Part shown: positions 8,017-63,297 of the stretch, piece by piece
Numbering within the stretch: the first letter of the stretch is position 1
Layout of the letters: each line of letters starts with the position of its first letter
Origin: an uncultured virus (IMG/VR IMGVR_UViG_3300044445_000196)
Taxonomy: Duplodnaviria; Heunggongvirae; Uroviricota; Caudoviricetes
Reading direction: 5' to 3' (one strand)
IMG/VR virus record: IMGVR_UViG_3300044445_000196
Length of the DNA: 64,000 bases
Notes under the pieces: model-generated
Told to the model about the DNA's origin: nothing
The model's input: the letters and a program-made list of their open reading frames with translations, nothing else
The model's database searches: none
Made by a program: the position numbers and the translations under genes

Positions 8017-8055
8017 CAGACACGCGTTTCGATGTGACCGCGCATAGCTCAGGGC

Positions 8056-8757
8056 ATGACCACCCGAACGAAAGCCCTCTCTATCAGCGCGCTCGCGCTG
8101 AGCATCATCGCGTTCCCGCATGCCGCTGCGGCCGCTGAGCCGACTCCCGCCCCCGCGACGGAGCTGTTCGCGTCCACCCTCGACGACTACACGTTGACCC
8201 CCGCGACTGACCTCGTCGTCACCATCGCCGCCAAGCCGGCCGCATCGGGGAAACAGACCTACACCGCTCCGGCGGAAACCATCCCGGCGCACGCCTCCCT
8301 CGACCGAGAGTCGTACTCCGCCGAACTGCAGCCCCGCCTGTCCCACCCGGTGGGCGGCTCCCCCATCAGCTCCTCCTACGGTCCCCGCGTCTGCGAGAGC
8401 GGCCCCTGCACCACCTTCCATGAAGGCGTCGATTACGCCGCCGGCACCGGCTCCCCCGTCCATCCCGTGGCCCGTGGCACCGTCGTCTCGGCCGGCTACG
8501 AGGGCAACTTCGGCAACAAGGTCGTCATCGACCACAACGTCAACGGTGAGCACTTCGTCACCATCTACGCGCACATGGACTTCATCTCCGTCCACACCGG
8601 TCAGAGCGTCGAACGATCCGACCAGATCGGCGGTGTCGGCAACACCGGCCGCAGCTACGGCGCCCACCTGCACTTCGAGCTCCGCCCGAACGGCGGCAGC
8701 TCAGTGAACCCCATCGCCTGGCTCGACGCTCGCGGCGTCCTGCCGTTCCCCGGCTGA
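8056..8757 (+). CDS. Secreted M23 peptidoglycan peptidase
   Basis: Signal peptide; HEGVD, YAH and HLH motifs. Confidence 0.92.
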   Translation: MTTRTKALSISALALSIIAFPHAAAAAEPTPAPATELFASTLDDYTLTPATDLVVTIAAKPAASGKQTYTAPAETIPAHASLDRESYSAELQPRLSHPVGGSPISSSYGPRVCESGPCTTFHEGVDYAAGTGSPVHPVARGTVVSAGYEGNFGNKVVIDHNVNGEHFVTIYAHMDFISVHTGQSVERSDQIGGVGNTGRSYGAHLHFELRPNGGSSVNPIAWLDARGVLPFPG

Positions 8758-8836
8758 TGTCACACCGCGCACCCGCCGCCGCGCATAGCCCTTTCGACGC
8801 CCGTGCGCACCGCACGGGTGGACGAGAGGAGCCCCT

Positions 8837-10423
8837 GTGACCACCGTGGCAGATACCGACGCCACCGCTGCTCCCCCGGCTGAGAACCCCGGCGCGAAGC
8901 CGTCGAACGAGTCGACCGTCGTCACCGACGAGCAGATCCTCGCCGCCGTCTCCCCCTTGGCCTGGATGGGGAAGTCCCTCGTCGTCAGCGACCGTGCACT
9001 CATTGAACGGCGCATCCGCCGAAAGAACCTCTCCGCGTCCACCCATCAGAGCGTGTCCAGCTGCCAGGCGAAGTTCGCCATCGAGTCAGTGCTGCCGCGT
9101 GTGGTGAATCCCCTCGCCGCAAACGAACTCGGCTCTGGCGCGCACGAAGTCCTCGAGCGGCTGTACGAGAAGCCGGCGGAGAAGCGCACCTTGCGCGCTC
9201 TCCGCGCGCAGGTGCGTCCTGTCGCGGTGAAGGCCCTCGCCGCCCTCGAAGGCACCCCCGCCTACGACGAGATGTTCGCGGAGTACACCCGGACCATCGG
9301 CGAGTGGGCGGAGAAGATCTTCGCCCTCGAGAATCCCGCCGAGGTGCAGGTCTACAAGAACGAGCTGCAGATGAAGGGGCTCGTGCTCAGCAACGGAGTG
9401 CCTTTCGTGGGGTACCTCGACCGCACCCGGTACGAGGGCGACCTCGATGACTGGGAGAACGTCAAGCTCCTCATCGACGACTACAAGTTCGGCGCGAAGG
9501 TGAAGAAGCCGGACCGCTTCGGAGACCCGTACGGCGACCAGATGCGCCTGTATAAGGACGCCATCTTCCAGGAGTTCGGGAAAGAGGTCACCTCCGCGCG
9601 GCTGCTGTTCCCGCGCCAGGAGACCATCGTCGCAGCCGACCTCTCCCCCGCCGCCACCCGGGCGACTCTCGCCGCGTTCCGTCGGTCGTACGACCTGATG
9701 ACCACCGTCAGCGATGCGGCCGTGTTCCCCGCCATCCCCGGTGGGCTCTGCGGGTGGTGCCCGGCCGCGAACAGCTGCCCGGTCGCGAAAATCCCGAACG
9801 CCAAGGCGCGGGAGTCCGCGGCGACCCAACACGGCGGTGTGAACGGCCCCGTCGCCCTCGGCATCCCGACGGTGCGCGAGTTCACCACCCCACCGCGCAT
9901 GAACACCGCAGACGCCACCGGGGCGTCCGACAAGGAGATTCCCATGACTGTCGTCGACTCGTCGCCGAAGCTGCACTACCCCACCAACAAGTGGGCGGCG
10001 ATGAACACGGCCTCCCTCACGGACGCCGCCTCCGCGCACCTCTCGATCTGGGAGCAGCCGCTCAAGCCCGTCACCATCCGTGCCCTCACCCGCGTGCTCG
10101 CCGGCATCACCCGCGACATCCACGAGGACGTGTTCATGGGCGGTTTCGACTGGTCCTTCGACTCCGCATCCCGCGTCGTCTACTCCCTCAAGGAGTCGCT
10201 GAAGTCGCGCCCCGCGCCGTTCGGAAAGGACGCCGCGGAGTGGGAGAAGTGGCGTAAAACCCTCATCGGGCTGACGGCGGCGAAGCTGCGCATCGCGGTC
10301 CCCCTGACCGACGAGAACGAGTTCGGCACCCCCGACTTCGATGCCCTCATCGTCCACACCACCGTCCCCGAGCGCACCCGCGAGGCCAAAGCTCAGCCCG
10401 CCGCCGAGCCCGTCCCGGCCTGA
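8837..10423 (+). CDS. PD-(D/E)XK RecB/Cas4-like exonuclease
   Basis: GYLDR...IDDYK...QMRLY; CGWCPAANSC plus N-terminal Cys. Confidence 0.85.
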   Translation: MTTVADTDATAAPPAENPGAKPSNESTVVTDEQILAAVSPLAWMGKSLVVSDRALIERRIRRKNLSASTHQSVSSCQAKFAIESVLPRVVNPLAANELGSGAHEVLERLYEKPAEKRTLRALRAQVRPVAVKALAALEGTPAYDEMFAEYTRTIGEWAEKIFALENPAEVQVYKNELQMKGLVLSNGVPFVGYLDRTRYEGDLDDWENVKLLIDDYKFGAKVKKPDRFGDPYGDQMRLYKDAIFQEFGKEVTSARLLFPRQETIVAADLSPAATRATLAAFRRSYDLMTTVSDAAVFPAIPGGLCGWCPAANSCPVAKIPNAKARESAATQHGGVNGPVALGIPTVREFTTPPRMNTADATGASDKEIPMTVVDSSPKLHYPTNKWAAMNTASLTDAASAHLSIWEQPLKPVTIRALTRVLAGITRDIHEDVFMGGFDWSFDSASRVVYSLKESLKSRPAPFGKDAAEWEKWRKTLIGLTAAKLRIAVPLTDENEFGTPDFDALIVHTTVPERTREAKAQPAAEPVPA

Positions 10424-10456
10424 CCCACCTTTTCCGCGGCGCCGCGCATAGGGGCT

Positions 10457-11077: not shown

Positions 11078-11143
11078 CCCGCACCGCCCCGCTCGGCCCG
11101 CACAGTCCTCGGTGCGGGCCGAGCCCGTTCCCGGAGGAAACCG

Positions 11144-12600: not shown

Positions 12601-12638
12601 GCGCTCTCCTGTTCGTGGGGGTGCGTCGTCTATGCGCG

Positions 12639-13213: not shown

Positions 13214-13378
13214 GATGTGTTCCGTATGTCTTTCCGTGATGCCCTTTCGGGCGGCGATCCGAGGTGGGGAGGTCCCGTCTCGGGGTGTTCAAGTCCCCGG
13301 GGTGGGGGCTTGTACGTCCTCTATGCGCGGTGTCTCACATCCGGTGTGACACTCGCCCTGTCGAGGTCGATGTGTGCC

Positions 13379-14920: not shown

Positions 14921-15012
14921 GGGGTCCTTCTCGGAGGTGGCGCGGGCGGGGTTCGCCTTGTGCTGGACCTCATCCATGCGCGGTGTCTGTGGCACGCGGT
15001 ACGCTTCGCCGC

Positions 15013-17091: not shown

Positions 17092-20000
17092 CTACCCCAC
17101 GATGTCGACGATGGCGATGACGCGCCCGTCGAGGGAGTATTCGAAGTGGTCGCGCGTCATGACGCGCCCCTCCGGCAGGAGCCGGGCGCCGCGCTCGTGC
17201 AGGTGCTGCGGGATCGCGGCCATGATGCGGATCTTGTTGTACGCCGCTGCGCGAGTCATCGTCAGGCGGAGCGGCCCGTCCCCCGGCTCCTCGACGTCGT
17301 CCGGGACACCGAAATCGGGAAGGTCGTCGACGGGGTCGATGATTGCTTCCGCGACGGGCTCGACCTCCGGGATCTCCAGCTCCGGCGCGCTCGGGGCCTC
17401 GGCGATTTCGATGACGGGGGCGATGTTCAGTGCGGGAACGACGACCTCTGTCGGCAGGGCACCGACAATGGGGTCGTCGAGGTGGACCTCGTCGATACGG
17501 CGGACGGTGAGCTGGCGGATCTTCTTGAGGGTGATGTTGCCCTCGTCGTCTTCCTGCTCGTACTCGCGGATGCCGACCTTCGCGGTGACCGCGACCGGCC
17601 ACCCGATCTGGGGGATGCCGATCTCGCGCTGCTCGGTGAGCTCGCCGTCCCACATGATGCAGTCGACGCGTTCGGTGGAGCCTTCCAGCACGATGGCGGC
17701 CTTACGCCCTCCCTTGTAGGAGCCTTCGGCGAACTGTGCGAGCAGGCCGATGACGGTGACGAGGCCGCCGGGCTCGGTCGGGATGAGGCCGATGGGAATG
17801 CCGCACTCTTCGACGATGCCGTACCCGGTGGCGACCTTCTTCTTCCACGACCTCACCTGGTCGCGGAAGACGACGAGAGGGTGGGCACCGAGGCTGACGC
17901 CCAGGCGCTGACGCTGGCGGGCGGAGCGCTCGATGAGACCCCACTCGATGTCGGGAACCGGCGCGGGCAGCGGCTCATCCGCCAGGCGGGCGACCATGGC
18001 GAGCCCGTAGCGGGGGCCGAAGGCGTCCAGCGCGCCCGCTTCGATGAGGCTGGCGATGTTGTTGGCCGGCAGGCGCTTGATGCCCGCTTCGTCAACCCGG
18101 ACCCGGTTGACCAGGTCCGTGAGGTTCTTGAAGCGGCCGCCCTGGTCTCGGTAGCGGACGACCGAGTCCCCGGCGCCGGAGACGCCGGCGACCTCGCTGA
18201 GGCCGATGCGGACCTTCGTCATCCCCTCCGGTGTGGAACGTGCGCGAGAGAGGTTCACGTCGGGGGCGAGCACCTCGATGCCCTCGGCCGGCAGGGCGAG
18301 CAGTGCCTCGATGCGACGGTCGGTCTCGGTGGTGTTGGCGAGGATGGCCGCGCCGTACGCCCCGGGCCAGTTGGCTTTGAGGAATGCGGTGTAGTAGCCG
18401 ATGTAGGCGTACGCCATCGAGTGGGAGGCGTTGAACGCGTAGGAGGCCGCCCCCTCGAACATCGACCAGATGCGGTCGGCGGTGTCCTTCCGGAAGACGG
18501 GACTGATGACCTGCCCGTACTCGTCGCGGAACTCTTTCCCGGCGCCGTCGAGGAAGATGTCCTTCACCTGCGCCATCTTCACCTTGTCCTTCTTGCCGAT
18601 GGCGCGGCGCAGGCTCGAGCGCTGACCGGCATCGAAACCGGCCAGGGTGGTGCCCAGGAGCATCATCTGCTCCTGGTACGCGAGGATGCCGAACGACTTC
18701 CCCAGCCGCGTGGCGATCCACTCCTGCTCGACGGTGTCGCTGGTGTACAGGTCGTAGGTGACGGCCTCCTTGCCGTTCTTCCGCAAGCCGTAGTGCTCGG
18801 GCATTCCGGCGCTGATGGGGCCGGGGCGGAAGAGGGCGTAGATGGCGGAGAGGTGCTCTTCGTTCTCGGGTTGCACGTCCTGGATGAGCTGGGTCATGGC
18901 GGGGCCCTCCGCCTGAAAGATGCCGGCGGTGCGCCCCTCCCGCAGGAGCTGCCAGGCACGGTCGACGCGCGGGTCGCCCTTCGTGGAGGGATGCGGAATC
19001 GTCTCCATCGTGAGAACCTCACCGGTCTGCTCGGCGATGTAGTCGAACGCGGTGTGCATGATGTCGAGGTTGCGCAACGACAGGATGTCGAGCTTGAGCA
19101 GACCGAACTTCTCGCAGTCCTTCGAATCCCACTGGGTCACCAGACGTACACGCTCGGTGCCGTCGGGCAGCTCGGTCTTCTTCTGACGCAGCGGGATGAG
19201 GTCGGGGAGGTAGCGGTCGCTGATGATGACACCGCAGGCGTGAATGGACGCACCGTTGACGATGCTGTCGAAGCTCTGCGCGAGCTCGAGCACCTCCTGG
19301 GCTGCAGCACCGCCCTTTTCAAGCACGCGACGGAACTCAGCGGTCTGCGTGTTGTCGGGGTTCAGCAGCTCCTCGAAAGGCATGGGATTGCCTTCGACGA
19401 CCGGGATGACCTTCGTGAGCTTCGCGCCGAGCGCGCCCTCCCCCAGCAGCCGGGCGGCGTCTTTCACCGCGCGTCGGGACTTGGAGACGCCGTAGCTGCC
19501 GATGAGGGCGACGTGGCCCTCACCCCAGCGGTATTCGAGGTAGTCCAGGATGTCTTCGCGGCGCAGGCGCTCGAAGTCGATGTCGAAGTCGGGCCAGTCG
19601 CTGCGGCCGCGCTCGATGAAGCGCTCGAACAGCAGGTCGTGGCGGAGGGGGTCAAGCCCTGTGATGCCGAGGGCGTAGGCGACCATCGAGCCGGCGCCGG
19701 AGCCGCGGCCGGGGCCGACGAGGATGGGAGCTTTCGTCCCGGAGCAGCCGTCGACGTCGCAGTCGTAGGTCTCCGCCCCGTGCGCGCGCACGGTCTGGTG
19801 GATGCATGCGCGAGATTTCGCCCAGTCGCAGACGTCCCACACGATGAGGAAGTAGTCCTCGAAACCCATATAGGTGATGACCTCCCATTCAACGTTGAGG
19901 CGGTCTTTCACCTCCTGCGGGAGCTCGTCCCCGTAGATGCGCTTCGCCCCGGCGAGCACCTGCGAGAACAGGTACTTGCGGCTGTTAGTGACCCCATCGG

Positions 20001-21240
20001 GCAGTGCGTACACCGGTAGCATGGCGTTGCCATCTGGGACGACGTCATCCTCGGTGCGGTCGGCGATGAGCTGCGAGTTCGCGCACGCCTGGTGCCACCA
20101 CACGCGCGGGTGCGAGGGGGTGTCCTTCGGACGTCCAAAGGTGCCGAGGTAGAACGCTTCCCGCGCGACTCGGAGGATGAACTCTCGAAGCGCGTCGTCC
20201 TCGACCTCCCCGCCCGTGCTGAGCCACCGATTCGCGCCTTCGATGTGTGCCGGGTCGACCGCGGCGGGACGAAGCATGAGCGGGAGGATGGGGTCCTCCA
20301 GAGCTCGCTGCAGGTGCAGGATCTCGACGCCGCTCATCAGCAGCGAGCCAGTGCCGGGGCGCTCAGGGGCGAACAGTCCGTACATCTCCTCGGTGGAGCG
20401 CAGGTGGTAGCCCTGGCCGGTGAAGCGATAGCGCTTCGGGTCGTCGAGGGGGCGAACACCCTCCTCGGCGGTGGACTTGCCAGCGAGGGTGCGAAGCGCC
20501 AGCCACGCGTCGTGAGCGTGCGCGTCGCAGTCGTGCGTGAAGTGCGAGTCGTTGGTGGCGATGAGGGGGATGCCGAACTCCTGGCCGAGCTCCCACATCT
20601 TCGGCAGCGCTTTGGTCTCCACGCGGATACCGTGCTCCATCACTTCGAGGAAGACGTTCTCGCGGCCGAACGCTTCTACCAGCGCAGTGAGGTTCCGGCG
20701 GGCGAGGTCCGTGTCGCCGCCGGCGACGGGCCCCAGGACGGGACCGCCCAGGCAGCCGGTGAGGGCGACGAGACCGTCGACATCCTCCGCGAGCAGGTTC
20801 AGGTCGGCCATGGGGTACTTCGACCACTTCGTGCGCTCAGCGGCATTGGTGATGCGCACGAGGTTCTGCCACCCGGCGCGCGTGGTGGCGAGCAGGGTCA
20901 GGTGGTAGTAGTTCTTCTTCTTCTGGGCGCCCTCGCCGGACTCATCGGAGTCGTCGGCGAGGTCCCCCGCGGTCAGCTGGTGCTTTGGTGCGTGCCGGTT
21001 GCCGAAGCTGCCGTCCGGGTCGATGGCGAGGTAGAGCTCCACGCCAGGGATGAGCTTCACACCGGCAGCTTTGGCCGCCTCTTTCGCCTTCCAGAGGCCA
21101 CCGGGGGTTCCGTGGTCGGTGACGGCGAGCGCGGACTGACCGTGCGCGGCGGCGGCCTTGAAGATGTCCTTCATACGGGCCAGGCCGTCGAGCAGGCTCG
21201 ACTCGGTGTGCACGTGGAGGTGCGTGAACTGCTGTGTCAT
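17092..21240 (-). CDS. dnaE: DNA polymerase III alpha subunit
   Basis: PHP HLHVHT...SLLDG, GPGRGS, PDFDID, KLDILSL, FNASH motifs. Confidence 0.97.
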   Translation of the reverse strand: MTQQFTHLHVHTESSLLDGLARMKDIFKAAAAHGQSALAVTDHGTPGGLWKAKEAAKAAGVKLIPGVELYLAIDPDGSFGNRHAPKHQLTAGDLADDSDESGEGAQKKKNYYHLTLLATTRAGWQNLVRITNAAERTKWSKYPMADLNLLAEDVDGLVALTGCLGGPVLGPVAGGDTDLARRNLTALVEAFGRENVFLEVMEHGIRVETKALPKMWELGQEFGIPLIATNDSHFTHDCDAHAHDAWLALRTLAGKSTAEEGVRPLDDPKRYRFTGQGYHLRSTEEMYGLFAPERPGTGSLLMSGVEILHLQRALEDPILPLMLRPAAVDPAHIEGANRWLSTGGEVEDDALREFILRVAREAFYLGTFGRPKDTPSHPRVWWHQACANSQLIADRTEDDVVPDGNAMLPVYALPDGVTNSRKYLFSQVLAGAKRIYGDELPQEVKDRLNVEWEVITYMGFEDYFLIVWDVCDWAKSRACIHQTVRAHGAETYDCDVDGCSGTKAPILVGPGRGSGAGSMVAYALGITGLDPLRHDLLFERFIERGRSDWPDFDIDFERLRREDILDYLEYRWGEGHVALIGSYGVSKSRRAVKDAARLLGEGALGAKLTKVIPVVEGNPMPFEELLNPDNTQTAEFRRVLEKGGAAAQEVLELAQSFDSIVNGASIHACGVIISDRYLPDLIPLRQKKTELPDGTERVRLVTQWDSKDCEKFGLLKLDILSLRNLDIMHTAFDYIAEQTGEVLTMETIPHPSTKGDPRVDRAWQLLREGRTAGIFQAEGPAMTQLIQDVQPENEEHLSAIYALFRPGPISAGMPEHYGLRKNGKEAVTYDLYTSDTVEQEWIATRLGKSFGILAYQEQMMLLGTTLAGFDAGQRSSLRRAIGKKDKVKMAQVKDIFLDGAGKEFRDEYGQVISPVFRKDTADRIWSMFEGAASYAFNASHSMAYAYIGYYTAFLKANWPGAYGAAILANTTETDRRIEALLALPAEGIEVLAPDVNLSRARSTPEGMTKVRIGLSEVAGVSGAGDSVVRYRDQGGRFKNLTDLVNRVRVDEAGIKRLPANNIASLIEAGALDAFGPRYGLAMVARLADEPLPAPVPDIEWGLIERSARQRQRLGVSLGAHPLVVFRDQVRSWKKKVATGYGIVEECGIPIGLIPTEPGGLVTVIGLLAQFAEGSYKGGRKAAIVLEGSTERVDCIMWDGELTEQREIGIPQIGWPVAVTAKVGIREYEQEDDEGNITLKKIRQLTVRRIDEVHLDDPIVGALPTEVVVPALNIAPVIEIAEAPSAPELEIPEVEPVAEAIIDPVDDLPDFGVPDDVEEPGDGPLRLTMTRAAAYNKIRIMAAIPQHLHERGARLLPEGRVMTRDHFEYSLDGRVIAIVDIVG

Positions 21241-21326
21241 GTGGTCGTCATCCCGTCGGGTGCGGGCAAAGGAGAGAGGGCGCCCGCGTGGTGCTACGGG
21301 AGGACTATGCGCGGCGACCGGTACGC

Positions 21327-21370: not shown

Positions 21371-24300
21371 TCAGCTCTCGGTCTTGGCGGATTCGGTGTC
21401 GTCGAGGACGATGCCGTCGTGGGCGATGGCGAACAGCTTCTCCGCGAGCACCGGGATGCCCGAGAAGCGGGAGGCGGAGGTCACCTCGGAACCGGGCGCG
21501 CCCAGGGACGTGCGCACGGCCATGGTGTCGGAGCGTCCGCCACCGGGCAGGGCGAGCTTCTCGGCGTAGACCGACCCCCAGGACTGCTTGGCCGTCTGAC
21601 CGTGCGGGATGAGCTCGGGGTAGCTGCGCTGCGCCTCCTTGAACGCCGCCGACAGGTCGAAGAGGGCGACTTCCTCCGTGCCCTTGCGGCCGAAGTAGCC
21701 GATGGCGGTGCCCTTGGGCACCCAGGTGGCGGCCTTCGCGTCGAACTCCCACCCGAGGGCCTGGTTCAGCGAGGCAACGTCGACACCGCCCACATCCTCC
21801 CCGCCAGCGCGGACCGTGTACGGCGGGGCCCCGGGGGTGGTGGGGTTGCGCAGGTGCGCCTTGCCGGTGGACATCAGTCCCGACAGGGCCTTCAGCAGCG
21901 CGGAACCGGGCGTGGTCGAACGAGCGCGGAGGATGCCCTCTGCTGCCAGTCCGTACAGCTCGCGCGCGTAGCCGTCCTCCGAGTCCAGCGCCCGCATCAC
22001 GGGCTCGTCGGGGTCGATGCCGGCCCACTCGGCGAGGCGGTAGAGGACGTTCAGGGTCAGCCCGAGGGAGGAGACCTGACCGACGAAGCGCGCGGCCTCG
22101 CCCTTTTCGATGCCGTGCTCGTCGTTCAGCACCTCGAAGGCGACCTTCTTGCCGTCGTTGAACACCGAGTTCAGCTGTGCCTGCCGGTCGGCCCACGTCG
22201 CACCGAAGCCGGTGTCGTCCTGGTGCCAGAAGCGGATCATCGCTGCGGCGAGTCGGGCGGGGGCGCCGTCGACGTCGCAGAGGTGCAGCAGCTCCTCCTC
22301 GCGCCACGCGCCGTGGTCGCCGCCGTCAGCGCTGTCGTCGAAGGCCTGGCTGGGCACGTTGAACACCAGGGTGCGGTCCTGGATGGAGGGGACGGTCGGG
22401 GGGTTTTCCGCGGTGACGCAGAGCACAGCGATGGGGTTGGCCACATCTCGCTGCTCCATCGTGCGCCCGTCCAGGCGGCGCTTGGCGGTGTTGTTGAACA
22501 TCGCCCGGATGATGGCTTCGAGGTCCGATGCCTGCTGCTCGGCCTTGCGGCGGTCGGTCTGCGGGGCGAGGTCGTCGATGATCCAGATGGGGGCGAGCGA
22601 GACGCTGGACTCGTGCGCGCCGAAGGTGTCGCCGGCGGAACCGGGCAGCTGGCTGCCGGTCCAGGTGCCGGGCGTCTGCTGCCACGGCTTCATCACGAAG
22701 GACGCGGTGTACGACTTGCCCGCGCCCTTAGGGCCGACGAAGTAGAGCGTCGTGCCGGGGTGCTTAGGGATGGTGGGGCGGAACATCGCGCAGAGCACCG
22801 CCACGGCGGTGGCGCGGTTCTTCCAGAACCCGTTCTCGACGACGACGCGCACCACGTCGCGGATGTCCTTGGCGACCTGCGCCTTGTACTGCTCGAGGTC
22901 GAGGGTGCCCCACTCGTCGATGACACCGAACTTCGACGCGCGCGGGAGCGTCTTCTCGGTCACACCGATGCGGGTCTGCTTCTCGTCATGCTCGCTCGCC
23001 GCGAGCACCTGGGTGCCGACGATGAAAGCGGGCTGGCCGTTGGGGACGGGGACCCATCCCATGGTGTTCCAGGCCACGGCGTTCTGCACCTTGTCGCGCT
23101 TGTTCGCCTTGATGGCACCGAGCCAGTCCAGGCCCTTACGCGGCGGCCAGTCCGGGTGGGCGAGCACCTCATTGGGCAGCTGGATGGCGTGACGCACCCA
23201 GTCCTGCGGCGGGGTCGACATGAGGGTGGCGGGACCGAGGACACGGTACCGGGTGGGGGTGTCGTCGATGTCCTGGTTGCGGTCGAGGAGGGCGATCTCG
23301 ATTTCGCAGGAGCTGTCCTCCAGGCGCATCGGCTGAGAGGAGTCGACGACACCGTTGAAGATCTCGCCTTCGGTGGGGCGGCGGCTCTCGACGTGCGAGA
23401 GCAGGCGTCCGCCGACGCGCGCACGGGTAACCCAGCTGCCGGTGGTCATACCGGTGTTCGAGTTGAGCTGCTCGACGTACTCCTGGGTGATGCCGTCGTT
23501 CTGGGGGTGCACGCGCCAGTCGCCTGCGATGGCGGTGGCCTCTCCCGCGTTGGGCTTGGGCGGCAGGTCGGCGGAGAGCAGGTCCTGCATCGAGGTCCAG
23601 GTGCCGATGTGGGCGAGGTAGTCGTCGATGCCGAGCTTGTCGGCGGGGTCCATACCGGCGGAGATCTGCGCCGCGGCGACCTCGGCGCTGAACAGCTTCA
23701 GCAGTGAGGGCTTGCCCTTGTTGTCGCGGACGAAGCGGAAGAACTTCTCCGTCTCGCGCCACACCATGGCGTTCTCGGCCAGGTCTCCGTCGAAGGCGAC
23801 GATGACGCGCTTGTCGCGCAGGCCGACCTTGCGCCAGTCTGCGGCGCGACCCTCCCAGGTGGTGACGGAGCCGGAGGTGGCCACGACGGTGCGCAGCTGC
23901 GCGGGGACCTTCAACATCAGCGCCTGCAGACGCAGACGCGCCTCGGCCGTGCTGATGACGGCGCCGGTGGCTTCGAAGACCACGCTGAGCTCTTCGACCG
24001 TGATGCCGGCGTCCAGGAGCACGGCGGTGAGGGCCGAGTCTCCCTTGAGCAGCCCCTCGGTCACCAGGACGCTGTTGGCGGACTCGGTCCACTCCACCGG
24101 GGTTGCCGGGTGCAGGTCGATGACCATGGACTGCCCCGGGAAGAACATGTACTTCGCGGGCTTGCCGTCCTCGCGGACGACCGGGGTGGCGGGCCGGTAC
24201 TGGTACAGCCCGGCCTTCGCTGCGGTGCCAGCTTCGACGACGGCGCTGACCGAGAACCACGGCATGGCGAGCATGTCTTCGTCCTCGGGGGCGACCAGGC

Positions 24301-24517: not shown

Positions 24518-24619
24518 GGTGGCGCCTATGCGCGTGCCCTGACGGATGCATTCGGCTGTCCCCCGCGGGCGCTCGCGCGCGCCCTGCGTCATCTCTGAGG
24601 TGGCGCGCATAGGGCAGCC

Positions 24620-30488: not shown

Positions 30489-30522
30489 AGGAGAGCTATG
30501 CGCGGTGCCGCCCCCGGAAACG

Positions 30523-37338: not shown

Positions 37339-37692
37339 TCAGCGTGGCGCGGGCGGGCGCCGCATCGCGATGCCGTCAATGCCGTCGTGGCCGGTCGCGG
37401 TGAAGCCGTACTCGCCGTAGAGGCCCACCAGACGCGTGATGTTTGCGCCGAGCATCGACGTTGCGGAGAGCAGGACGACCGCCCCGACCTCGTCCGCCCA
37501 GGCGGCGACTTCGCTCAGCGCCTGGCGCGCGCAACCGCGGCCGCGGAGGTCCGCGGGCACGGCGATGAGGTCCAGGGAGACGACGCCCAGCCCTGCGTCG
37601 CTGACGTGGACCATCGCGGACAGCGACGCCACGCTTCGGCGGAGGTCAGCAGCCGTATTAACACGAGCGCTATGCGCTCGCGCGCGCTTCAC
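37339..37692 (-). CDS. GNAT acetyltransferase (start uncertain)
   Basis: IAVPADLRGRGCA...LYGEYGF. Confidence 0.6.
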   Translation of the reverse strand: MKRARAHSARVNTAADLRRSVASLSAMVHVSDAGLGVVSLDLIAVPADLRGRGCARQALSEVAAWADEVGAVVLLSATSMLGANITRLVGLYGEYGFTATGHDGIDGIAMRRPPAPR

Positions 37693-37825: not shown

Positions 37826-37865
37826 CCGCGCCGGCGCCCGCGACAGCGTCACGCATAGGCACCCC

Positions 37866-39787: not shown

Positions 39788-39837
39788 GCGGTTCGCTCGT
39801 GTCCATTGCGGCGGGGCGGACCGCGCATGGAGAGGAC

Positions 39838-40602: not shown

Positions 40603-40735
40603 GGGGTGCTCCTTGAGGTCGTGACCTGGAATGTAGCGTCCAGGTCGGCGGTTTTTAGGTGCCCATGCGCGGCGGCGCGCGCGATTCAGTACCGTCACCC
40701 CGAAATGCAGTGACCCCGCGCCCCGGATTGGGTAG

Positions 40736-41076: not shown

Positions 41077-41100
41077 GCCTATGCGTGCTGACGCATAGGC
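41077..41100. promoter_or_regulatory. Back-to-back class A motifs
   Basis: GCCTATGCGT-GCTG-ACGCATAGGC between divergent genes; right motif 7 nt before ATG 41106. Confidence 0.7.
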
Positions 41101-42652: not shown

Positions 42653-42705
42653 GTCATTCCCACCGCGCATGGCATGGTCACGACACCCTGACGAAGGAGA
42701 CCATC

Positions 42706-43125: not shown

Positions 43126-43183
43126 GCGCCTTAGGCTGCGAGGGGTGGCACTGTCCACCCCTCGCACCGCGCATAGATATCTC

Positions 43184-45193: not shown

Positions 45194-45194
45194 G

Positions 45195-45395: not shown

Positions 45396-45408
45396 GCGGG
45401 CAGCGACG

Positions 45409-45822: not shown

Positions 45823-45826
45823 CCGC

Positions 45827-48701: not shown

Positions 48702-48726
48702 GTCACGCCTATGCGCTCGTGCGTGC

Positions 48727-50690: not shown

Positions 50691-51311
50691 CTATGCGCGA
50701 CCGAGGGTCCTGACGGTGGTGGGGCGCCCGCGCCCGTGGGATGCCATGCCGACGGTGGCGACACCGGGGAGCGAGTCGATGAGGCGGTTGAGGTTGCCGA
50801 GGTGGGGTTCGTTGCCGGCGAGCGCGATGTGCAGCTGGCGAGCGTCGCGGGTGGTGAACTCCATGGGCAGCAGCTCACGGGTGAACGGGAGGTTCCGCCA
50901 GAGAAGGTCGCGAAGGAGCGGTGTGCTGGTGTCGATGATGTGGCCGTGGTCGAACGCCAAGCTCGGCAGGTCCTCCCCGAGGGCGACGGATGCGGTCGTA
51001 TCGAGGGCCGGGAGCACGGCCCACATGGCGATGGACAGGCTCGGTCCGCGAGGGTCGCGATTCGGTTCGTCGAAGGTGAGAAGCTGGCCAAGCGCGAGCG
51101 GGGGCTGGCTGGTGAACTTTGCGAGGGCCCGCCCGGCGGCGTCGGCGAGGCGTTCGCCACGCTGCAGCACGACCCCCGGAAGGGCCCGCCGGCCGAGGAA
51201 CGGTTCGCGTGTGCGCTCGGGGACGGCGAGACACACCACGCCGGCGTCTTGGTCGTAGGCGAGCGCCAGCACGTCGACGCTGACGACGGAGAGGAGGTCG
51301 TTCTCGGTCAT
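50691..51311 (-). CDS. NrtR-like NUDIX regulator
   Basis: VSVDV...ALPG...GERL...RDPRG...LAFDH; wHTH with GRP. Confidence 0.85.
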   Translation of the reverse strand: MTENDLLSVVSVDVLALAYDQDAGVVCLAVPERTREPFLGRRALPGVVLQRGERLADAAGRALAKFTSQPPLALGQLLTFDEPNRDPRGPSLSIAMWAVLPALDTTASVALGEDLPSLAFDHGHIIDTSTPLLRDLLWRNLPFTRELLPMEFTTRDARQLHIALAGNEPHLGNLNRLIDSLPGVATVGMASHGRGRPTTVRTLGRA

Positions 51312-52624
51312 GCGAAACTCCGGTCTGTGCGGCGGGGGCCGTCCGCGGTGAGCGCGACGGGGGCGCCGACGGCGCGGGTGATGTGCTCGAGCAGCTCCTG
51401 CGAGTCTGCCACGGGGGCGTAGACGGGGGCAGCGTTCTCTGCGGCGACCGTGCGACGCTGCGACAGGGGCTCGGTGTTTGTGCCGCGCAGAAGCGCGTCT
51501 GCTCGCAGGCCCCAGGAGGTGACAACACAGTCCTGCGGGGCGTCGAGGTGAGACACGCTGACGGCGTCCACTCCCCCGGCCACCGCGGCGGCGTAGCGGA
51601 GGGTGACGAGGTCGAGATGACCTTGGCGCCATCCACCGGTGAAGACCTCGGTGCCGTTGTCGAGTTCAGGGTGGCCGAGCTCGGCTTCGGTGGGCATAGG
51701 TCCGGCGCCGTGGCGGGTGGCGTAGGTGCGGGTCAGTCCGAGCACGAACGGGTGATGCCCCTGGTCTACGAGGTGCGCGCGCAGGCGGCGGGGGCTGGTT
51801 GTGGCCCAGGTGGTGTGCGGGTGGAAGCCGTAGTCCTCGTCGAGGAGGATGCCCTGGCTGCCTTCGTAGAGGACGCTGCCGTCGTTGAGCAGCTCAAGCA
51901 CGGCGCTGTCACCGGTGGTGGTGCGGATGTTGACGCCGACGTCGAGCATCTGCGTCACGAGGGCGTCGATGGGGTCGATATGCAACAGCCCGCCGGGGTC
52001 GTCGACGCCTGCTAGCAGCGGCGCGGCGTAGCGCATCATCTCGTCGAGTACCGCGGTCAGAGTGTGCCGGTCGGTAAGGTCCCCGGCGCGGAGCGCGCGT
52101 CGACCGGCTTCGCCGGGCGCGGTGAAGTTCCCGACGAGGTCGCCAGCCCGGGCGCCGGCGCGGCAGGCGAGGTCGTAGGCGACGGTCTCTCCGATGCCGA
52201 TGCCGGTGCTGCCGTGGCGGCCGTCGCCGCGGGCGAGCTCGCGGGCGCGGTTCATGGCCTGGTTGATGGGGGTGGTGACCAGGCAGCCAGTGTCGACGGT
52301 GATGAGGTCGAGCGGGTTGGTGACACCCTTGGACGCGAGTTCGTGCGCTTCGGCGACGAGGAGTTGCGGGTGCAGCATCGCCGGGGCGAGGAGGTAGGTC
52401 GGCACGTCGAGGAAGGTCGCGGAGCCGAACTGGTGGAAGGTGTGGTGGCGGGCGCCGTGGCGGACGTTGTGCGCGGCTTGCGCGCCGCCGGACCAGCGCA
52501 CGACCGCGGCGGTGTCCGGGATTGCCCGGGCGAGAGCGTCAGTGGTCGCGCCTTTCGCTTCGTCGCCGTAGCCGAGACCGGTGACGATGACGGGGGTGCG
52601 TCGGAGGTCGGTCAGGGCGTTCAT
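51308..52624 (-). CDS. Adenylosuccinate synthetase-like protein
   Basis: GLGYGDEAKG, GGAQAAH, EGSQG.LLD..YG, TRHGAGP. Confidence 0.88.
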   Translation of the reverse strand: MNALTDLRRTPVIVTGLGYGDEAKGATTDALARAIPDTAAVVRWSGGAQAAHNVRHGARHHTFHQFGSATFLDVPTYLLAPAMLHPQLLVAEAHELASKGVTNPLDLITVDTGCLVTTPINQAMNRARELARGDGRHGSTGIGIGETVAYDLACRAGARAGDLVGNFTAPGEAGRRALRAGDLTDRHTLTAVLDEMMRYAAPLLAGVDDPGGLLHIDPIDALVTQMLDVGVNIRTTTGDSAVLELLNDGSVLYEGSQGILLDEDYGFHPHTTWATTSPRRLRAHLVDQGHHPFVLGLTRTYATRHGAGPMPTEAELGHPELDNGTEVFTGGWRQGHLDLVTLRYAAAVAGGVDAVSVSHLDAPQDCVVTSWGLRADALLRGTNTEPLSQRRTVAAENAAPVYAPVADSQELLEHITRAVGAPVALTADGPRRTDRSFA

Positions 52625-53641: not shown

Positions 53642-53721
53642 GGTGTCGCCTTTCGGATGGTGGCTTGCACCCTTCCCATGCGCAGTGCCCGCGGGGCCGG
53701 ATGACCCCGCGGGCTGCGCCA

Positions 53722-54729: not shown

Positions 54730-55614
54730 TCAGGCCTTCGCGGGGAGGGCGAAGAGTCGGAACCTGCGCGGCCCGTACAGGCGCTCGAGCAGGGTGTCGT
54801 ATTCGCGCAACGCCTGTGCGGGGTTGAGCGTGTTGAGGTGGTCGGCGAAGTGCCGCTGGCGCCCGCCGGCCGCGTCGAGGGTGCGGTCGAAGAGGTGGGC
54901 GATGGCGGTGTTGTCCTTGCCCTCCCCCTGCCATCCGGTCAGGACGATGCCGTGACCTTCCGGGTGGACAAAGACGGTGTTCTCATCGAGTGCCCCATGC
55001 GCGGTGCCGGCGGTGTCGAGCACCATGAACAGTCGGCGGGCCATCCATGCCCAGTCGCGGCCGTCGAGGCCGTTGGGGTAGGCCGCGCGGACCTCGCGGA
55101 GCGCGTGAGCACCGTCGGGGATGCGGTAGGCGATCCAGGTGCGCCCGGCAGTCGTACCGGTGTCGAGCACGGTGGGGACGTACCCGGCGAGACCGACGGC
55201 GTCGAGCTTCGGGGTGATGGCGATGAGGGTGCGCACGGCGTCGTTGGCGGCGGGGGTGCGGGCGATGTCGAGCCGGACCCCGTCGGTGTCGGTGAGGTAG
55301 GTGGCGATGGTGGCGCTGGCGCGTACTTGGTCGCGGAAAAGGTAGGTACCGTGTGCGCCGACGACGTGCGGGGCGGCAGCGGGCTTCGGCGCCGCGATGG
55401 GGGTCTTGTAGCGCTCCCAGGCGGTGTTCAAGGCGATGGTCGCGCGCTGGGCGGCGTCACGGTCGATGCCTTCCTGGTCCGCGCGGTCGGGGTGCACGGC
55501 GAAGGCGAGGACGCGGTAGAGGCGGGTCACACGGCGAGTGTCCCCGCCGGCGGGGGCGAAGATGTCGCCGGCCTCGATGTGGGCGAGGGCGTCGGTTCCA
55601 TTCCAGGTTCGCAT
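54730..55614 (-). CDS. J-domain plus degenerate kinase-like protein
   Basis: LYRVLAFAVHPD J motif; AHGALDENTV kinase-like loop. Confidence 0.75.
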   Translation of the reverse strand: MRTWNGTDALAHIEAGDIFAPAGGDTRRVTRLYRVLAFAVHPDRADQEGIDRDAAQRATIALNTAWERYKTPIAAPKPAAAPHVVGAHGTYLFRDQVRASATIATYLTDTDGVRLDIARTPAANDAVRTLIAITPKLDAVGLAGYVPTVLDTGTTAGRTWIAYRIPDGAHALREVRAAYPNGLDGRDWAWMARRLFMVLDTAGTAHGALDENTVFVHPEGHGIVLTGWQGEGKDNTAIAHLFDRTLDAAGGRQRHFADHLNTLNPAQALREYDTLLERLYGPRRFRLFALPAKA

Positions 55615-56219: not shown

Positions 56220-56841
56220 CCGTGTCGGCGTGGTCGCGGAAGCCCCACCACCGGTCGGTGTCGGACAGGGTGGCTCCAACCACCAGGCTCCCGCGCCACT
56301 CCGCCTCCCCCATGGACGTGAGCTGTTGACGCCAGAACTCCCGCTCGGGTATGGACGCGCGCTTCGTCTCCGCGACCGTCAGCGCCTGTTCGGAAACCCT
56401 CTCGAGCTCGGGGCCTTCGAGATCCTGGATCGAGCCGTCGTAGTCGAGGTGCTCGTAGTAGAGCGCGGCGACACCGCGGCGCATCCCGTCACGGAACTCT
56501 GCGGCCTCCTCGTCGTGCGACGCGAGCGAATCCGCGTCGCGGATCCAGGCGCGCGTTGCCGCCACCCGCTCCCGGCCCGCGACGCCGCGGGAGAGTTTGC
56601 CGTCCTGCACCGAGAAGACCAGCGGGTCGATGTACTCGTCGAAGACAGCGAGCCGCCCCCTCTTCACCTCGGTGACGTCCTCGCGGTCAATTCGGGGGTC
56701 CACCGGCGGGCGCGCTTCCCCGCCGGGCAGAGACGCAATCTCCGAGCGCCCGATGGCGAGCTCGGGTGCGCTGTGGTGCGCCTGCGCGAACCGCCCGGTA
56801 CGGCCGTGGCGGGGATGCTGGGGCTCGTCGAAGGAGGTCAT
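56203..56841 (-). CDS. Tagged hypothetical protein
   Basis: MTSFDEPQHPRHGRTGRFAQAHHSAPE; class B motif 56849-56858. Confidence 0.85.
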   Translation of the reverse strand: MTSFDEPQHPRHGRTGRFAQAHHSAPELAIGRSEIASLPGGEARPPVDPRIDREDVTEVKRGRLAVFDEYIDPLVFSVQDGKLSRGVAGRERVAATRAWIRDADSLASHDEEAAEFRDGMRRGVAALYYEHLDYDGSIQDLEGPELERVSEQALTVAETKRASIPEREFWRQQLTSMGEAEWRGSLVVGATLSDTDRWWGFRDHADTVISER

Positions 56842-56848
56842 GATCGCC

Positions 56849-56870
56849 ATGTGCGCGGCGCCGCGCATGG
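56849..56870. promoter_or_regulatory. Back-to-back class B (left) and class A (right) motifs
   Basis: ATGTGCGCGG-CG-CCGCGCATGG; each 7 nt from an ATG (56841, 56878). Confidence 0.75.
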
Positions 56871-56877
56871 AGGAGCC

Positions 56878-57573
56878 ATGACCCCGACTGAGCCCGAAGC
56901 CGCCAATACCCCCATGCTGACCGAAGAGGCCGGCAACTCCATCCTCGACACCATCGCCGAAACGATGCTGCCGATGAAGAACGAAGCCGGGGACTGGGTC
57001 GACCTCCCCACGAACCAGCGTCTGAGCGCAGCCTTCGGCCCGCTTGCTGAGACGGTCGCCCGCATGATCTTCCTCGCCGCTGCCAGTGGCCACGACGCGG
57101 GTCTGCTCGCTGTCACCCCGTCCGGGGAGCGCACCGACATCCTCGCCGCTGGGCTGCGTCGTGTGCACACGGCCGACATGTTCGGCGACTGCGTCGAGGA
57201 CGGTGACCACTACCCCTGCAAGACCGCGCGCATCCTTGACCTCGTCGCCGGGGCCCCCGAGCCCACCAGCGCAGGCGAAGCACCCGATGGCGCGCTCGAG
57301 GAGCAGACGCTCGGTCTTCGCGACCTCACCTTCCCGACCGAGGACGAAGCCGCGTTCATCGGTGACACGGTCATCCTCGGCATGGTCCGCCGCGACCAGC
57401 TGCAGGCGGGCGACACCGTGCTCACCGCGCAGTACGGCGTTCGCACTGTGCAGTCCGTGAACGTCCTCGGAACGACCGTCACGGTCGCCTACGAGCCCGC
57501 GGACGCCGAAGCCGCCCCCACGGAGTCTCACCCTGTCGACGCGCGCGTGCCGCTCGTGGATTCTCGCGACTGA
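56878..57573 (+). CDS. Hypothetical protein
   Basis: Follows class A motif; H...C..D...YPC. Confidence 0.7.
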   Translation: MTPTEPEAANTPMLTEEAGNSILDTIAETMLPMKNEAGDWVDLPTNQRLSAAFGPLAETVARMIFLAAASGHDAGLLAVTPSGERTDILAAGLRRVHTADMFGDCVEDGDHYPCKTARILDLVAGAPEPTSAGEAPDGALEEQTLGLRDLTFPTEDEAAFIGDTVILGMVRRDQLQAGDTVLTAQYGVRTVQSVNVLGTTVTVAYEPADAEAAPTESHPVDARVPLVDSRD

Positions 57574-59646: not shown

Positions 59647-59647
59647 C

Positions 59648-60228: not shown

Positions 60229-60252
60229 GGCCACCATGTACGAGGCGCGCGC

Positions 60253-60606: not shown

Positions 60607-60690
60607 CTGGTGCGCTCCGTTCAGGTAGTGGACGACTGCACCCCGTCCATGCGCGGGCGCCGCGGCCACCCGTGACACGAGCAGCAGTGG

Positions 60691-61319: not shown

Positions 61320-61395
61320 GAGTCGGTCCTTTCAGAGCCGCGGCGTGCGGCGTCCTGTGTCCCATGCGCGGTCCCACGTCGGGCACGTGCCCGGC

Positions 61396-61860: not shown

Positions 61861-61865
61861 GCCGG

Positions 61866-62819
61866 TCATGTACTCGGCAGCTCGTCGAGGTACGCGACCG
61901 CGTCCAGGCCCGCGACTGCTCCGCTGCCGGCGGCGGTGATGGCCTGCCGGTAGATGGGGTCGATGACGTCGCCGGCGGCGAAGAACCCGGCGGTGGGGTA
62001 CGCGACGCCGGGGACCACGGAGGTGCGTCCGATGGTGCAGATGGTGCCGTGCTCGCTGAGGGCGACCTGCCCTTGGACGAGGTCGGTGCGGGGGTCGCTG
62101 CCGATGGCGATGAACAGTCCGGTCACCTCGAGCACCTCGTCGATGGTGGCGGTGTGCTCGATGAGGACGGAGCGGAGCGCTCCGTCGTGCTCGTCGAGGA
62201 TGGCGACGGTGCTGTCGAGGATGAGGGTGATGTTCGAGGTGGCGTGGACGCGGTCCTGCATGGCCTTGGATGCGCGAAGTCGGTCGCCGCGCGCGACGAT
62301 GTAGACGGTGTGGGCGTACTTGGCGAGGGCGAGGGCTTCCTCCATCGCGGAGTCTCCCCCGCCGACGACGGCGACGTACGCTCCGGCGAAGAAGGGCGCG
62401 TCGCAGGTGGCGCAGTAGCTGACTCCGCGGCCGGTGAGCGTTTCCTCGTTCGGGAGTCCGAGGGTGCGGTGCTGACTGCCGGTCGCGAAGATGACGGCGT
62501 CGAAGCCAATGGTGTCCCCTGCCGCGGTCGTGGCGGTCTTGCCTGCGACGTCGAGGCGGGTGATGTCGTCGAAGCGGATGTCGGCGCCGGCTTCGATGGC
62601 CTGCTCCTGCATTCGTTCGATGAGCTCGGGGCCCTGGATGCCGCCGGGGAAGCCCGGGAAGTTGTCGACGGATGTCGTTGTGGTCAGGTCGCCGCCGGGG
62701 CGTTCCATGCCGGTGTAGACGACGGCGGGGTGTCCGGCGCGCCCGGCGTAGATGGCGGCGGTGAGCGCTGCGGGTCCGGCGCCGATGATGAGCAGGGGGA
62801 TGTGCGACGAGGAAGGCAT
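61866..62819 (-). CDS. trxB: Thioredoxin reductase
   Basis: IIGAGPA, GVSYCATCD, VGGGDSAMEEA, FAAGDV. Confidence 0.95.
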   Translation of the reverse strand: MPSSSHIPLLIIGAGPAALTAAIYAGRAGHPAVVYTGMERPGGDLTTTTSVDNFPGFPGGIQGPELIERMQEQAIEAGADIRFDDITRLDVAGKTATTAAGDTIGFDAVIFATGSQHRTLGLPNEETLTGRGVSYCATCDAPFFAGAYVAVVGGGDSAMEEALALAKYAHTVYIVARGDRLRASKAMQDRVHATSNITLILDSTVAILDEHDGALRSVLIEHTATIDEVLEVTGLFIAIGSDPRTDLVQGQVALSEHGTICTIGRTSVVPGVAYPTAGFFAAGDVIDPIYRQAITAAGSGAVAGLDAVAYLDELPST

Positions 62820-62825
62820 GCCGCC

Positions 62826-63263
62826 CTATGCGCGCCCCTCCTGCTGAGTTCGCAACTGCGCGAACTTCTCAGCGCGCTCGGCTCGTGAGCTCTGCAGGCG
62901 GGTGATGCTCTGGACGAGGGCGGCGTACCAGCCGTCGAAGGGGATGAAGTGATGACCGTCGGCCGCGTATTGGCGCGCCCAGCGCGCCTCGTCGAGGTCG
63001 GCGACGCCGAGGGCGATGAAGTGCTCGAGAGCGCCGAGCAAGCCGTGGACGCTCCACTGGTTGTGCAGCTGCAGACCGACCGTGCCGTCCGCGTAGGTAT
63101 GGGGAGTGGCGCGTCGAAGGGCGCCTTCGACGCAGCTGAGGCAGGTCGCACCAACGTAGGAGCGCCCGGCGCGTCTGAAGGTGCCGCCGCCGGTACGCGC
63201 AACCGGGTAGGTGTGCTCGCGGCGGAGCCTGCAGTACCGGCAAGTGCTTCTGGTCGGCGTCAT
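62826..63263 (-). CDS. Zn-finger hypothetical protein
   Basis: CRYC...CLSC; class A motif 63271-63280. Confidence 0.65.
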   Translation of the reverse strand: MTPTRSTCRYCRLRREHTYPVARTGGGTFRRAGRSYVGATCLSCVEGALRRATPHTYADGTVGLQLHNQWSVHGLLGALEHFIALGVADLDEARWARQYAADGHHFIPFDGWYAALVQSITRLQSSRAERAEKFAQLRTQQEGRA

Positions 63264-63297
63264 GCATGCCCCATGCGCGGCAATGGCAGCCGTCCCG

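Follow-up and report, generated by a model that had tools for sequence, protein, structure and literature searches.

What is a short word doing that recurs in front of genes and points towards them, and what might read it? The question is raised by a stretch of 64,000 nt from an uncultured virus record (IMG/VR IMGVR_UViG_3300044445_000196; Caudoviricetes), here called the window, in which the 7-mer CGCATRG and its longer form, the 10-mer CCGCGCATRG, i.e. CCGCGCAT(A/G)G with CCGCGCATAG as a representative word, lie upstream of many genes. We refer to this motif as class A. The first-pass annotation had read it as a second element-specific promoter class that marks replication and core genes. 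The motif is enriched, gene-oriented, regularly spaced, conserved in relatives and specific to a family of giant plasmids. We read it as a -10-type core promoter element of that family, most likely recognized by a plasmid-encoded FliA-like sigma factor, and put the probability of this reading at about 0.68.

Enrichment, orientation and spacing of the word

Motif enrichment, which had been named as a check on these sites, is found for both lengths of the word. Counted on both strands of the 64,000 nt, CGCATRG occurs 38 times, against 17.77 +/- 3.87 copies in 100 dinucleotide shuffles (maximum 29; none of the 100 reaches 38), and CCGCGCATRG occurs 16 times, against 0.73 +/- 0.93 (maximum 4). All 23 sites listed in the first-pass annotation are real matches to CGCATRG, with an offset of 3 where the three-nucleotide prefix had been counted; further copies are found at 41079 (-), 53676 (-), 37670 (-) and 5175 (-). 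Individual sites are described in Table 1.

Because the G+C content of the window is 65-72%, open reading frames (ORFs) alone are useless for gene calling; the gene calls come from a model of codon log-odds, for which long ORFs served as the training set, and a few of the called genes were then corrected. Fully intergenic positions are taken by 24 of the 38 copies, though intergenic DNA makes up 4200 of the 64,000 nt (6.6%; binomial p 1.6e-19). A co-oriented gene start lies within 120 nt downstream of 26 of the 38, where the background is 7.0% of oriented positions, and only 6 of 38 have one when the motif is flipped as a control; for the 10-mer the count is 14 of 16. Prior to any correction of gene starts, 23 of the 38 copies were upstream of a co-oriented start.

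The distances from motif to start fall into a near group of 14 sites (5, 6, 6, 7 at nine sites, 8 and 8 nt) and a far group of 12 (28, 29, 33, 34, 40, 42, 48, 55, 60, 64, 82 and 107 nt). It had been noticed at first pass that roughly every second site is 5-8 nt from the start codon while the rest precede leadered genes with a ribosome-binding site, and both parts of that description hold: at the 12 leadered sites a GGAG-type Shine-Dalgarno (SD) sequence of the gene's own adjoins the start codon. Without any gene calls, ATG or GTG follows CGCATRG at a spacer of 7 in 9 of the 38 copies, at a spacer of 5 in 5 and at a spacer of 8 in 3, the remaining spacers mostly having 0-2 such copies. A de novo hexamer comparison, run on positions -70 to +2 of 73 gene starts, likewise places CGCATA and GCATAG at the top (16 genes versus 0.81 expected).

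In an alignment of 29 window copies, the information is confined to about -5 to +7 around the core (R-C-C-G-CGCATRG); no column upstream of -5 is informative at these 29 sites, and there is no conserved -35 element. The corresponding alignment of 85 sites from a Curtobacterium plasmid described below gives the consensus T-CCGCGCATAG-A-g-g; the sole feature further upstream, at about 20 nt, is a weak CCGCA. Inspection by eye had suggested a fixed -35 word, TGTCAC, at a few sites; column counts over the window and Curtobacterium sites do not bear it out. Hairpins of -23 kcal/mol or below lie within 60 nt upstream of 7 of the 26 sites (12630, 21305, 30496, 39824, 42666, 43170 and 53676), versus 1.5% of 400 random positions, and several are followed by T-rich runs, so that they resemble terminators of the gene before. 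At 43170 and 53676 only 4-5 nt separate the end of the hairpin from the motif, too few to accommodate a sequence-specific -35 element.

If the word is a -10 element, transcripts from the near sites (5-8 nt, mostly 7) would have the A or G of the start codon as their first base and be leaderless mRNAs. With a spacer of 7 and a transcript starting at the ATG, the motif would span positions -17 to -8, as C C G-15 C-14 G-13 C-12 A-11 T-10 A-9 G-8; in this register -12 is C in all copies, and -7 is T in only 2 of the 29 window sites. The far sites (28-107 nt) would give leadered transcripts that use the gene's own SD. As no conserved -35 element is present, recognition would rest on the long -10 region.

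The near sites could also be imagined as a translation start signal acting on the mRNA, in the manner of the start-associated sequences (SAS) of Cluster K mycobacteriophages. SAS are given as GGGATAGGAGCCC, 3-7 bp before starts (PMC3203893). They resemble class A in being short, asymmetric, element-specific words that stand in one orientation a few bases before the ATG; they precede many non-structural genes and are absent from the host. The 14 near sites, mostly before ATG, would suit such a signal, and in Curtobacterium the consensus continues with AGG/GAGG. SAS always stand 3-7 bp from the start; of the 26 class A sites, 14 are at a distance of 5-8 nt, and the other 12, at 28-107 nt, precede genes equipped with their own SD. 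SAS contain AGGAG; the class A core CGCATRG contains neither AGGAG nor another SD, and no anti-SD complementarity is seen in it. In addition, the bases that follow the motif are variable and not SD-like at most window sites, and the terminator-like hairpins directly upstream suggest that new transcripts begin there. We regard a translation signal as very improbable.

Alternatively, the word might be not the -10 element itself but the operator of a plasmid-encoded regulator that sits on core promoters. It has a fixed position beside start sites, is element-specific and occurs in many copies, in which respects it is comparable to the 13-bp stoperators of Cluster A mycobacteriophages (PMC3203893); and the window encodes proteins of the helix-turn-helix (HTH) type, e.g. 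an NrtR-like winged helix at 50691-51311. An operator is harder to reconcile with the asymmetry and gene orientation of the motif (26 of 38 copies co-oriented versus 6 when flipped), with the lack of any other -10-like element in the 5-8 nt between motif and start at the 14 leaderless sites, and with A-11 and T-10 falling where a sigma factor needs them; we give it a small chance. The motif as a methylation target of the three DNA methylases is ruled out by the intergenic position and orientation of the copies.

Related words in a family of giant plasmids

To place the element, proteins of the window were scanned against Pfam, PHROGs and NCBIfam. Identified were DnaE (17092-21240), single-stranded DNA-binding protein (SSB), an NAD-dependent ligase, a PD-(D/E)XK nuclease, an M23 peptidase, two N6/N4 methylases, a thioredoxin-reductase-like protein, a ParA/CpaE-like ATPase and a divergent PurA-like protein; most window genes match no family in these three collections. 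The idea that class A marks replication and core genes stands for part of its genes, while about half of them are without a family match. A megablast of 24 kb against plasmid and phage collections returns no nucleotide match, and a scan of viral contigs for DnaE returns none either.

DnaE is closest, at 42-44% identity, to dnaE on circular plasmids of 375-608 kb from Curtobacterium, Arthrobacter, Pseudarthrobacter and Paenarthrobacter. A 607-kb Curtobacterium plasmid (L001) shares the layout of the window: a divergent pair encoding a ParA-like ATPase and a protein of about 1000 aa, then dnaE, an exonuclease and ssb. The paired proteins are 29% (ATPase) and 33% (the ~1000-aa protein) identical to their Curtobacterium counterparts. 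For one window protein, close relatives occur in Microbacterium and on contigs as long as 354 kb, and DNA of the window occurs in leaf metagenome runs. Judged by the DnaE kinship, the local layout, the Microbacterium relatives and the leaf metagenome occurrence, the window is a 64-kb piece of a giant (about 0.4-0.6 Mb) Micrococcales plasmid, with a presumptive host of the Microbacteriaceae type.

The word recurs in the relatives. CCGCGCATRG is present 93, 106 and 108 times in Curtobacterium giant plasmids of 607, 567 and 546 kb, versus 6, 4 and 4 copies of the reversed control word, and ordinary RepA/ParA plasmids of Curtobacterium, of 164 and 42 kb, hold 1 and 2 copies (reversed control word, 0 in each). 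On the giant plasmids this amounts to a density of about 1 per 5-6 kb, where chance would give about 1 per 90 kb. Strains known to carry plasmids of this kind are Curtobacterium sp. MCBD17_040, C. pusillum AA3, Curtobacterium sp. MCSS17_016 and Microbacterium sp. 77mftsu3.1. When the 607-kb plasmid is run in 31 pieces through the same gene caller, 85 of the 93 copies are intergenic, 8 are sense and 0 antisense; the commonest distances to the called start are 7 nt (30 sites) and 8 nt (14 sites), and CGCATAG-N7-RTG occurs 52 times versus 2 for the control. A weight matrix built from 113 sites of this plasmid finds 31 matches of at least 8 bits in the window versus 10 in the reversed window. In the divergent pair of the Curtobacterium plasmid, each gene has CGCATAG or CTGCATAG 7-8 nt before its ATG.

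A metagenome contig, L040, with about 73% nucleotide identity to the window over 17 kb, gives a closer comparison: at the sites orthologous to 24526, 24606, 30496 and 37852, motif and spacing are kept while the flanks have changed. At L040 18601-18612, two overlapping class A copies form the palindrome CCTATGCGCATAGG; in the window itself, two copies on opposite strands lie 13 nt apart at 41.08 kb (start codons 41050 and 41106).

Further away, a scan of genome contigs finds one distant relative locus only (33% identity in the ~1000-aa protein). This relative uses TTGCGCATGGTG, in several cases 8 nt before an ATG; its metagenome bin has 27 copies of TTGCGCATGGTG, three contigs accounting for 19, versus 0 copies of the control. 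What flanks the core varies by lineage, CCG..AG as against TTG..TG in the distant relative. Giant plasmids of the Arthrobacter type have CGCATAG and CCGCACACAT before a few starts; in two of them (L002 and L003), CCGCACACAT + 7 nt + ATG is recurrent, and GTCTACGCATGT stands further upstream of some genes. The latter two words may be the versions of the promoter classes used by the Arthrobacter-type lineage. From this comparison of the Curtobacterium, distant-relative and Arthrobacter-type words, the core CGCAT(A/G)G is common to the plasmid family and its flanks are lineage-specific.

Class A has a sister. The second most striking upstream word in the window, class B, is CCGCG(C/T)ACAT + 7 nt + ATG, and 11 of 15 copies of GCGYACAT have an ATG or GTG at a spacer of exactly 7 nt. 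Class B genes mostly begin ATGAC(C)(G/C/A)ACATC, translated as MT(D/H/N)I, and 11 of the 12 have no Pfam match; they must be the genes that the first-pass annotation called tagged. That annotation had seen no class A copy at this spacing before a tagged gene, and the two motifs are never found together at one gene. A shared N-terminal peptide could account for the conserved first codons, as could an element downstream of the start that serves the promoter or the translation of leaderless mRNAs. When they are lined up by start codon, both classes share the frame CCGCG-Y-A, followed by T-A-G in class A and C-A-T in class B. They alternate along the same strand, and in one divergent pair the start codons of a class B and a class A gene are 36 nt apart (56841-56878). 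Class B is also present on the Curtobacterium plasmid, with 13 of 43 copies at spacer 7.

A sigma-like protein as candidate reader

Which protein might recognize class A? The candidate in the window is a divergent sigma-70-family protein (Table 1), encoded by the fourth and last gene of the operon that starts at class A site 24606 and has the ParA/CpaE-like ATPase gene first. The gene directly before it in the operon (27711-28085, +; 124 aa) has a weak match to integration host factor of the actinobacterial type (E 1.7e-4).

By sequence, the sigma-like protein is remote from known families. Its Pfam match to Sigma70_r3 scores 19.2 bits (E 0.0014), below the cut-off of 25.3, along with weak HTH matches; it has no Sigma70 r2 or r4 match and fails the curated Pfam cut-offs. 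A profile search finds 162 relatives, and among the 141 scanned (E up to 0.01), Sigma70_r3 is matched in 38, r2 in 5 and r4 in 3. Neither phmmer with the protein nor a 19-sequence profile finds a sigma match among PDB sequences; the profile of the 141-sequence family has FliA 1rp3 as its best PDB match (E 1.8e-6), then many SigA, RpoS, SigB and ECF chains. Neighbours in the ESM Atlas fall in sigma-like clusters, a result used as a lead only.

The structure prediction adds to this. The AlphaFold model has a pLDDT of 92.4, and in a Foldseek comparison all 49 matches listed, out of 409 at E up to 10, are to sigma factors, matched full-length over about 280 columns at a probability of 0.98-1.00. 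The TM scores, 0.25-0.38, are low; this is to be expected, since the model is of a free multi-domain protein and the chains it is set against are bound in holoenzymes. On the model, this is a sigma-like protein with a predicted sigma-2, sigma-3 and sigma-4 domain fold.

In the Curtobacterium plasmid, the corresponding place in the operon is taken by an ortholog (28% identity, E 1e-21). Members of the family occur in 4 of the 4 giant plasmids tested and on the contig of the distant relative's metagenome-assembled genome, and are absent from both ordinary Curtobacterium plasmids searched; by this distribution, the sigma-like protein is a core gene of the giant-plasmid family. Other sigma genes are encountered in the relatives. 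The Curtobacterium plasmid has ECF-like and FliA-like sigma ORFs besides the family described here, and in the Pseudarthrobacter giant plasmid pACHL01 (L002 4199-7171, -) a gene annotated as a 990-aa 'sigma-70 family' protein adjoins Tad/Flp pilus genes. Three ordinary sigma ORFs from related elements have no homolog in the window by tblastn.

In the mechanism that we propose, host core RNA polymerase would read class A together with the plasmid-encoded, divergent, FliA-like sigma-70-family factor. That transcription starts at class A sites, with the sigma-like protein as the reader, is the most likely arrangement; the protein is a plausible reader by its co-occurrence with the motif and its likeness to FliA. 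The pairing is not one-to-one for the exact word, since giant plasmids of the Arthrobacter type carry the gene and are almost without the 10-mer.

The likeness to FliA invites a comparison with sigma-28 promoters. The sigma-28 -10 element is given as (-15)GCCGATAA(-8), with GC as extended -10 and A-11 flipped out (PMC12784957). Assuming a spacer of 7 and a transcript start at the ATG, class A would coincide with this element in 5 of 8 positions and in the frame. A CGA core is described as highly conserved in actinobacterial sigma-28/WhiG-type -10 elements (PMC12871210). Class A has an additional conserved CC (and T) further upstream. FliA is the best solved relative, by profile, of the window's sigma-like family, whose window member itself falls below the Pfam cut-offs. 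By analogy, class A would function like an extended -10 of the sigma-28 type and yet not be a member of that promoter class.

Two other comparisons frame the proposal. Actinobacterial promoters of leaderless mRNAs have a -10 element, TANNNT, at a fixed 6-8 nt before the start codon; like class A in the register assumed here, they place the -10 directly before the start codon and have an A at -11, transcription and translation thus sharing their first base, and class A differs from them in having C rather than T at -12, no T at -7 and a conserved word of 10-14 nt in place of a loose hexamer. Mobile elements that bring their own sigma factor and their own promoter word are well known, e.g. phage T4, whose late promoters lack a -35 element and are read by gp55, and the Bacillus plasmid pBS32, which encodes the sigma factor SigN. 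Our proposal is of the same kind, with other words and other sigma lineages; unlike gp55, the window protein is predicted to have sigma-2, sigma-3 and sigma-4 domains.

Microbacteriaceae hosts may have sigma factors of the sigma-28/WhiG type or of other group-3 types, and one of these, rather than the plasmid's sigma-like protein, might read the promoter. The frame G-15 C-14 .. A-11 T-10 A-9 is common to the sigma-28 -10 element, Arthrobacter-type plasmids carry the sigma-like gene without the 10-mer, and a plasmid sigma that reads the class A promoter of its own operon (24606) would need something else to start the loop. A host reader sits less well with ordinary Curtobacterium plasmids that hold just 1-2 copies, with the missing WhiG-type central CGA and -35, and with core flanks that vary by plasmid lineage, as would be expected for a reader travelling with the element. 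We consider a host sigma unlikely, if worth keeping in view.

Several points weigh against class A as a promoter read by the plasmid sigma factor. The central CGA of sigma-28 is replaced by GCA in all class A copies, and the sigma-28 -35 (T(A/C)AA / TCTAAAG, ~16 nt upstream) is missing. The -17 to -8 register is an assumption, as the transcript start is taken at the ATG. AGG/GAGG after the motif in the Curtobacterium consensus could act as a short-spaced ribosome-binding site. Element specificity is measured on 206 kb of ordinary Curtobacterium plasmid DNA and one metagenome bin, and the Arthrobacter-type giant plasmids, with a sigma-like gene, contain only 2 and 3 copies of CCGCGCATRG. In the window, 3 of the 26 upstream calls (40663, 60647 and 56864) depend on starts re-set after the motif was seen; the start for 56864 is independently backed by a coding score of 104 for 56878-57573 versus -14 for the preceding stretch, and those for 40663 and 60647 were prompted by the motif, with no independent coding-score support. 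The 10-mer copies at 14974 and 54995 are not at a promoter-like position, the chance expectation for the 10-mer being about one copy in the window.

Finally, classes A and B differ only at -10 and -8, and one factor could read both. This bears on the earlier idea of a second promoter class, which is favoured indirectly by orientation, intergenic position, spacing, conservation, specificity for giant plasmids and the existence of a separate class B, and which a shared reader would undercut. A phage-like temporal programme of class A versus class B, also suggested at first pass, may exist and is pure inference. Two poly(A) RNA runs of a study that also contains window DNA have 0 reads on the window, a result with no bearing on promoter activity.

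Neighbouring genes and what the motif may mean

Table 1. Class A and class B sites and the sigma-like gene in the window (nt, distance from motif to start codon)
Feature	Position	Strand	Context
Class A	8041..8047	+	8 nt before ATG 8056, M23 peptidase; 10-mer from 8038
Class A	8782..8788	+	48 nt before GTG 8837, PD-(D/E)XK nuclease; leadered
Class A	10445..10451	+	5 nt before GTG 10457; 206 aa, no family
Class A	12630..12636	-	29 nt before ATG 12600, 130 aa, SD-led; strong hairpin just upstream
Class A	13321..13327	-	107 nt before ATG 13213, SSB
10-mer copy, doubtful role	14974..14980	-	contains predicted ATG (14977) of Orn-like (oligoribonuclease-like) gene
Class A	21305..21311	-	64 nt before ATG 21240, DnaE; upstream terminator-like hairpin, -35.5 kcal/mol
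Class A	24526..24532	-	8 nt before ATG 24517, 1048-aa protein, no family match; kept in L040 and L001
Class A	24606..24612	+	7 nt before ATG 24620, ParA/CpaE-like ATPase; kept in L040 and L001
Divergent sigma-70-family protein, candidate motif reader	28082-28915	+	277 aa
Class A	30496..30502	-	7 nt before ATG 30488, DUF2637; invariant in L040 and L041 despite diverged flanks
Weak class A, no CCG prefix	37670..37676	-	55 nt before ATG 37614
Class A	37852..37858	+	7 nt before ATG 37866, N6/N4 DNA methylase; kept in L040
Class A	39824..39830	+	7 nt before ATG 39838, 125 aa
Class A	40663..40669	-	60 nt before GTG 40602 (re-set start)
Class A	41079..41085	-	28 nt before GTG 41050, SD-led; back to back with 41092
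Class A	41092..41098	+	7 nt before ATG 41106, operon with HD-domain gene
Class A	42666..42672	+	33 nt before ATG 42706, SD-led; hairpin upstream
Class A	43170..43176	+	7 nt before ATG 43184, NAD-dependent DNA ligase; 4 nt between hairpin end and 10-mer prefix
Class A	48709..48715	-	7 nt before ATG 48701, 94 aa
Class A	50691..50697	-	6 nt before ATG 50684, 333 aa; overlaps end of upstream gene
Class A	53676..53682	-	34 nt before ATG 53641, first gene of PurA-like operon; hairpin upstream
10-mer copy	54995..55001	-	inside gene 54730-55614; chance copy or internal start; absent from first-pass list
Class B example	56849..56854	-	GCGCACAT + 7 nt + ATG 56841
Class A	56864..56870	+	7 nt before ATG 56878; 36 nt from divergent class B start (56841)
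Class A	60647..60653	-	40 nt before ATG 60606, Phage_ProQ_C_like (re-set start)
Class A	61362..61368	-	42 nt before GTG 61319
Class A	62826..62832	-	6 nt before ATG 62819, thioredoxin-reductase-like
Class A	63271..63277	-	7 nt before ATG 63263, 145 aa
Class B gene starts	436, 4524, 5092, 6523, 17020, 37295, 47252, 48036, 49659, 56841, 60228, 61860	-	

Some neighbouring genes and regions can be described briefly. The 1048-aa protein (21371-24517, -) had been labelled a primase-helicase, a label left unconfirmed by Pfam, PHROGs and NCBIfam, in which it has no family match; it contains a P-loop-like stretch, GPxGxGKS. A 1375-aa protein (31213-35340, -) is likewise without a match in the three collections. 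The PurA-like gene (51308-52624, -) matches a PHROG 'PurZ-type' family and scores 140 bits against NCBIfam purA, for which the cut-off is 402; PurZ, of the 2-aminoadenine DNA pathway, was rejected for it (25 bits versus a cut-off of 300). With a gene for an HD / RelA-SpoT-like hydrolase fragment (41905-42594, +), it constitutes plasmid-borne nucleotide metabolism. The largest gap in the window, 633 nt at 45194-45826, lies downstream of ligA and has no called gene, Rfam match or tRNA; Rfam and tRNA scans of the window as a whole return no match. In the 607-kb Curtobacterium plasmid (L001 26289-26390), PLSDB lists an 'NDM beta-lactamase' of 102 nt, which is much shorter than any such gene should be and is probably an error of the database.

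The word, the sigma lineage, the two-class, -10-only leaderless design and the status of the plasmid family as a regulatory unit seem not to have been described before: literature searches, with most subscription journals outside their scope, found nothing relevant on the motif or on the regulation of giant plasmids, and PMC10973392 does not deal with this element. If the promoter reading is true, many genes would be leaderless and their starts could be corrected from the motif, fragments of the giant-plasmid family could be recognized in metagenomes, and a new sigma lineage and its promoter would be available as a testable pair. It would also provide a compact, -35-independent, possibly orthogonal promoter for high-GC actinobacteria, and it raises the question of whether Cluster K SAS might be leaderless promoters as well.

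For the plasmids themselves, a broader picture can be sketched, tentatively and with the odds against it as a whole. The family may have a transcription system of its own, with one or more FliA-like sigma factors and about 100 -10-only, mostly leaderless promoters in two sub-classes, run as a programme that has two states or is timed, as in a large phage. Within this sketch, and just as tentatively, the sub-classes may separate replication and maintenance genes from the MT(D/H/N)I orphan genes, in hosts that are leaf- and soil-dwelling Micrococcales. The genes of giant Micrococcales plasmids (pACHL01 and the Curtobacterium plasmids of 546-607 kb) are mostly annotated as hypothetical; if class A is what we take it to be, one word of 10 nt would flag some hundred transcription units on each such plasmid.

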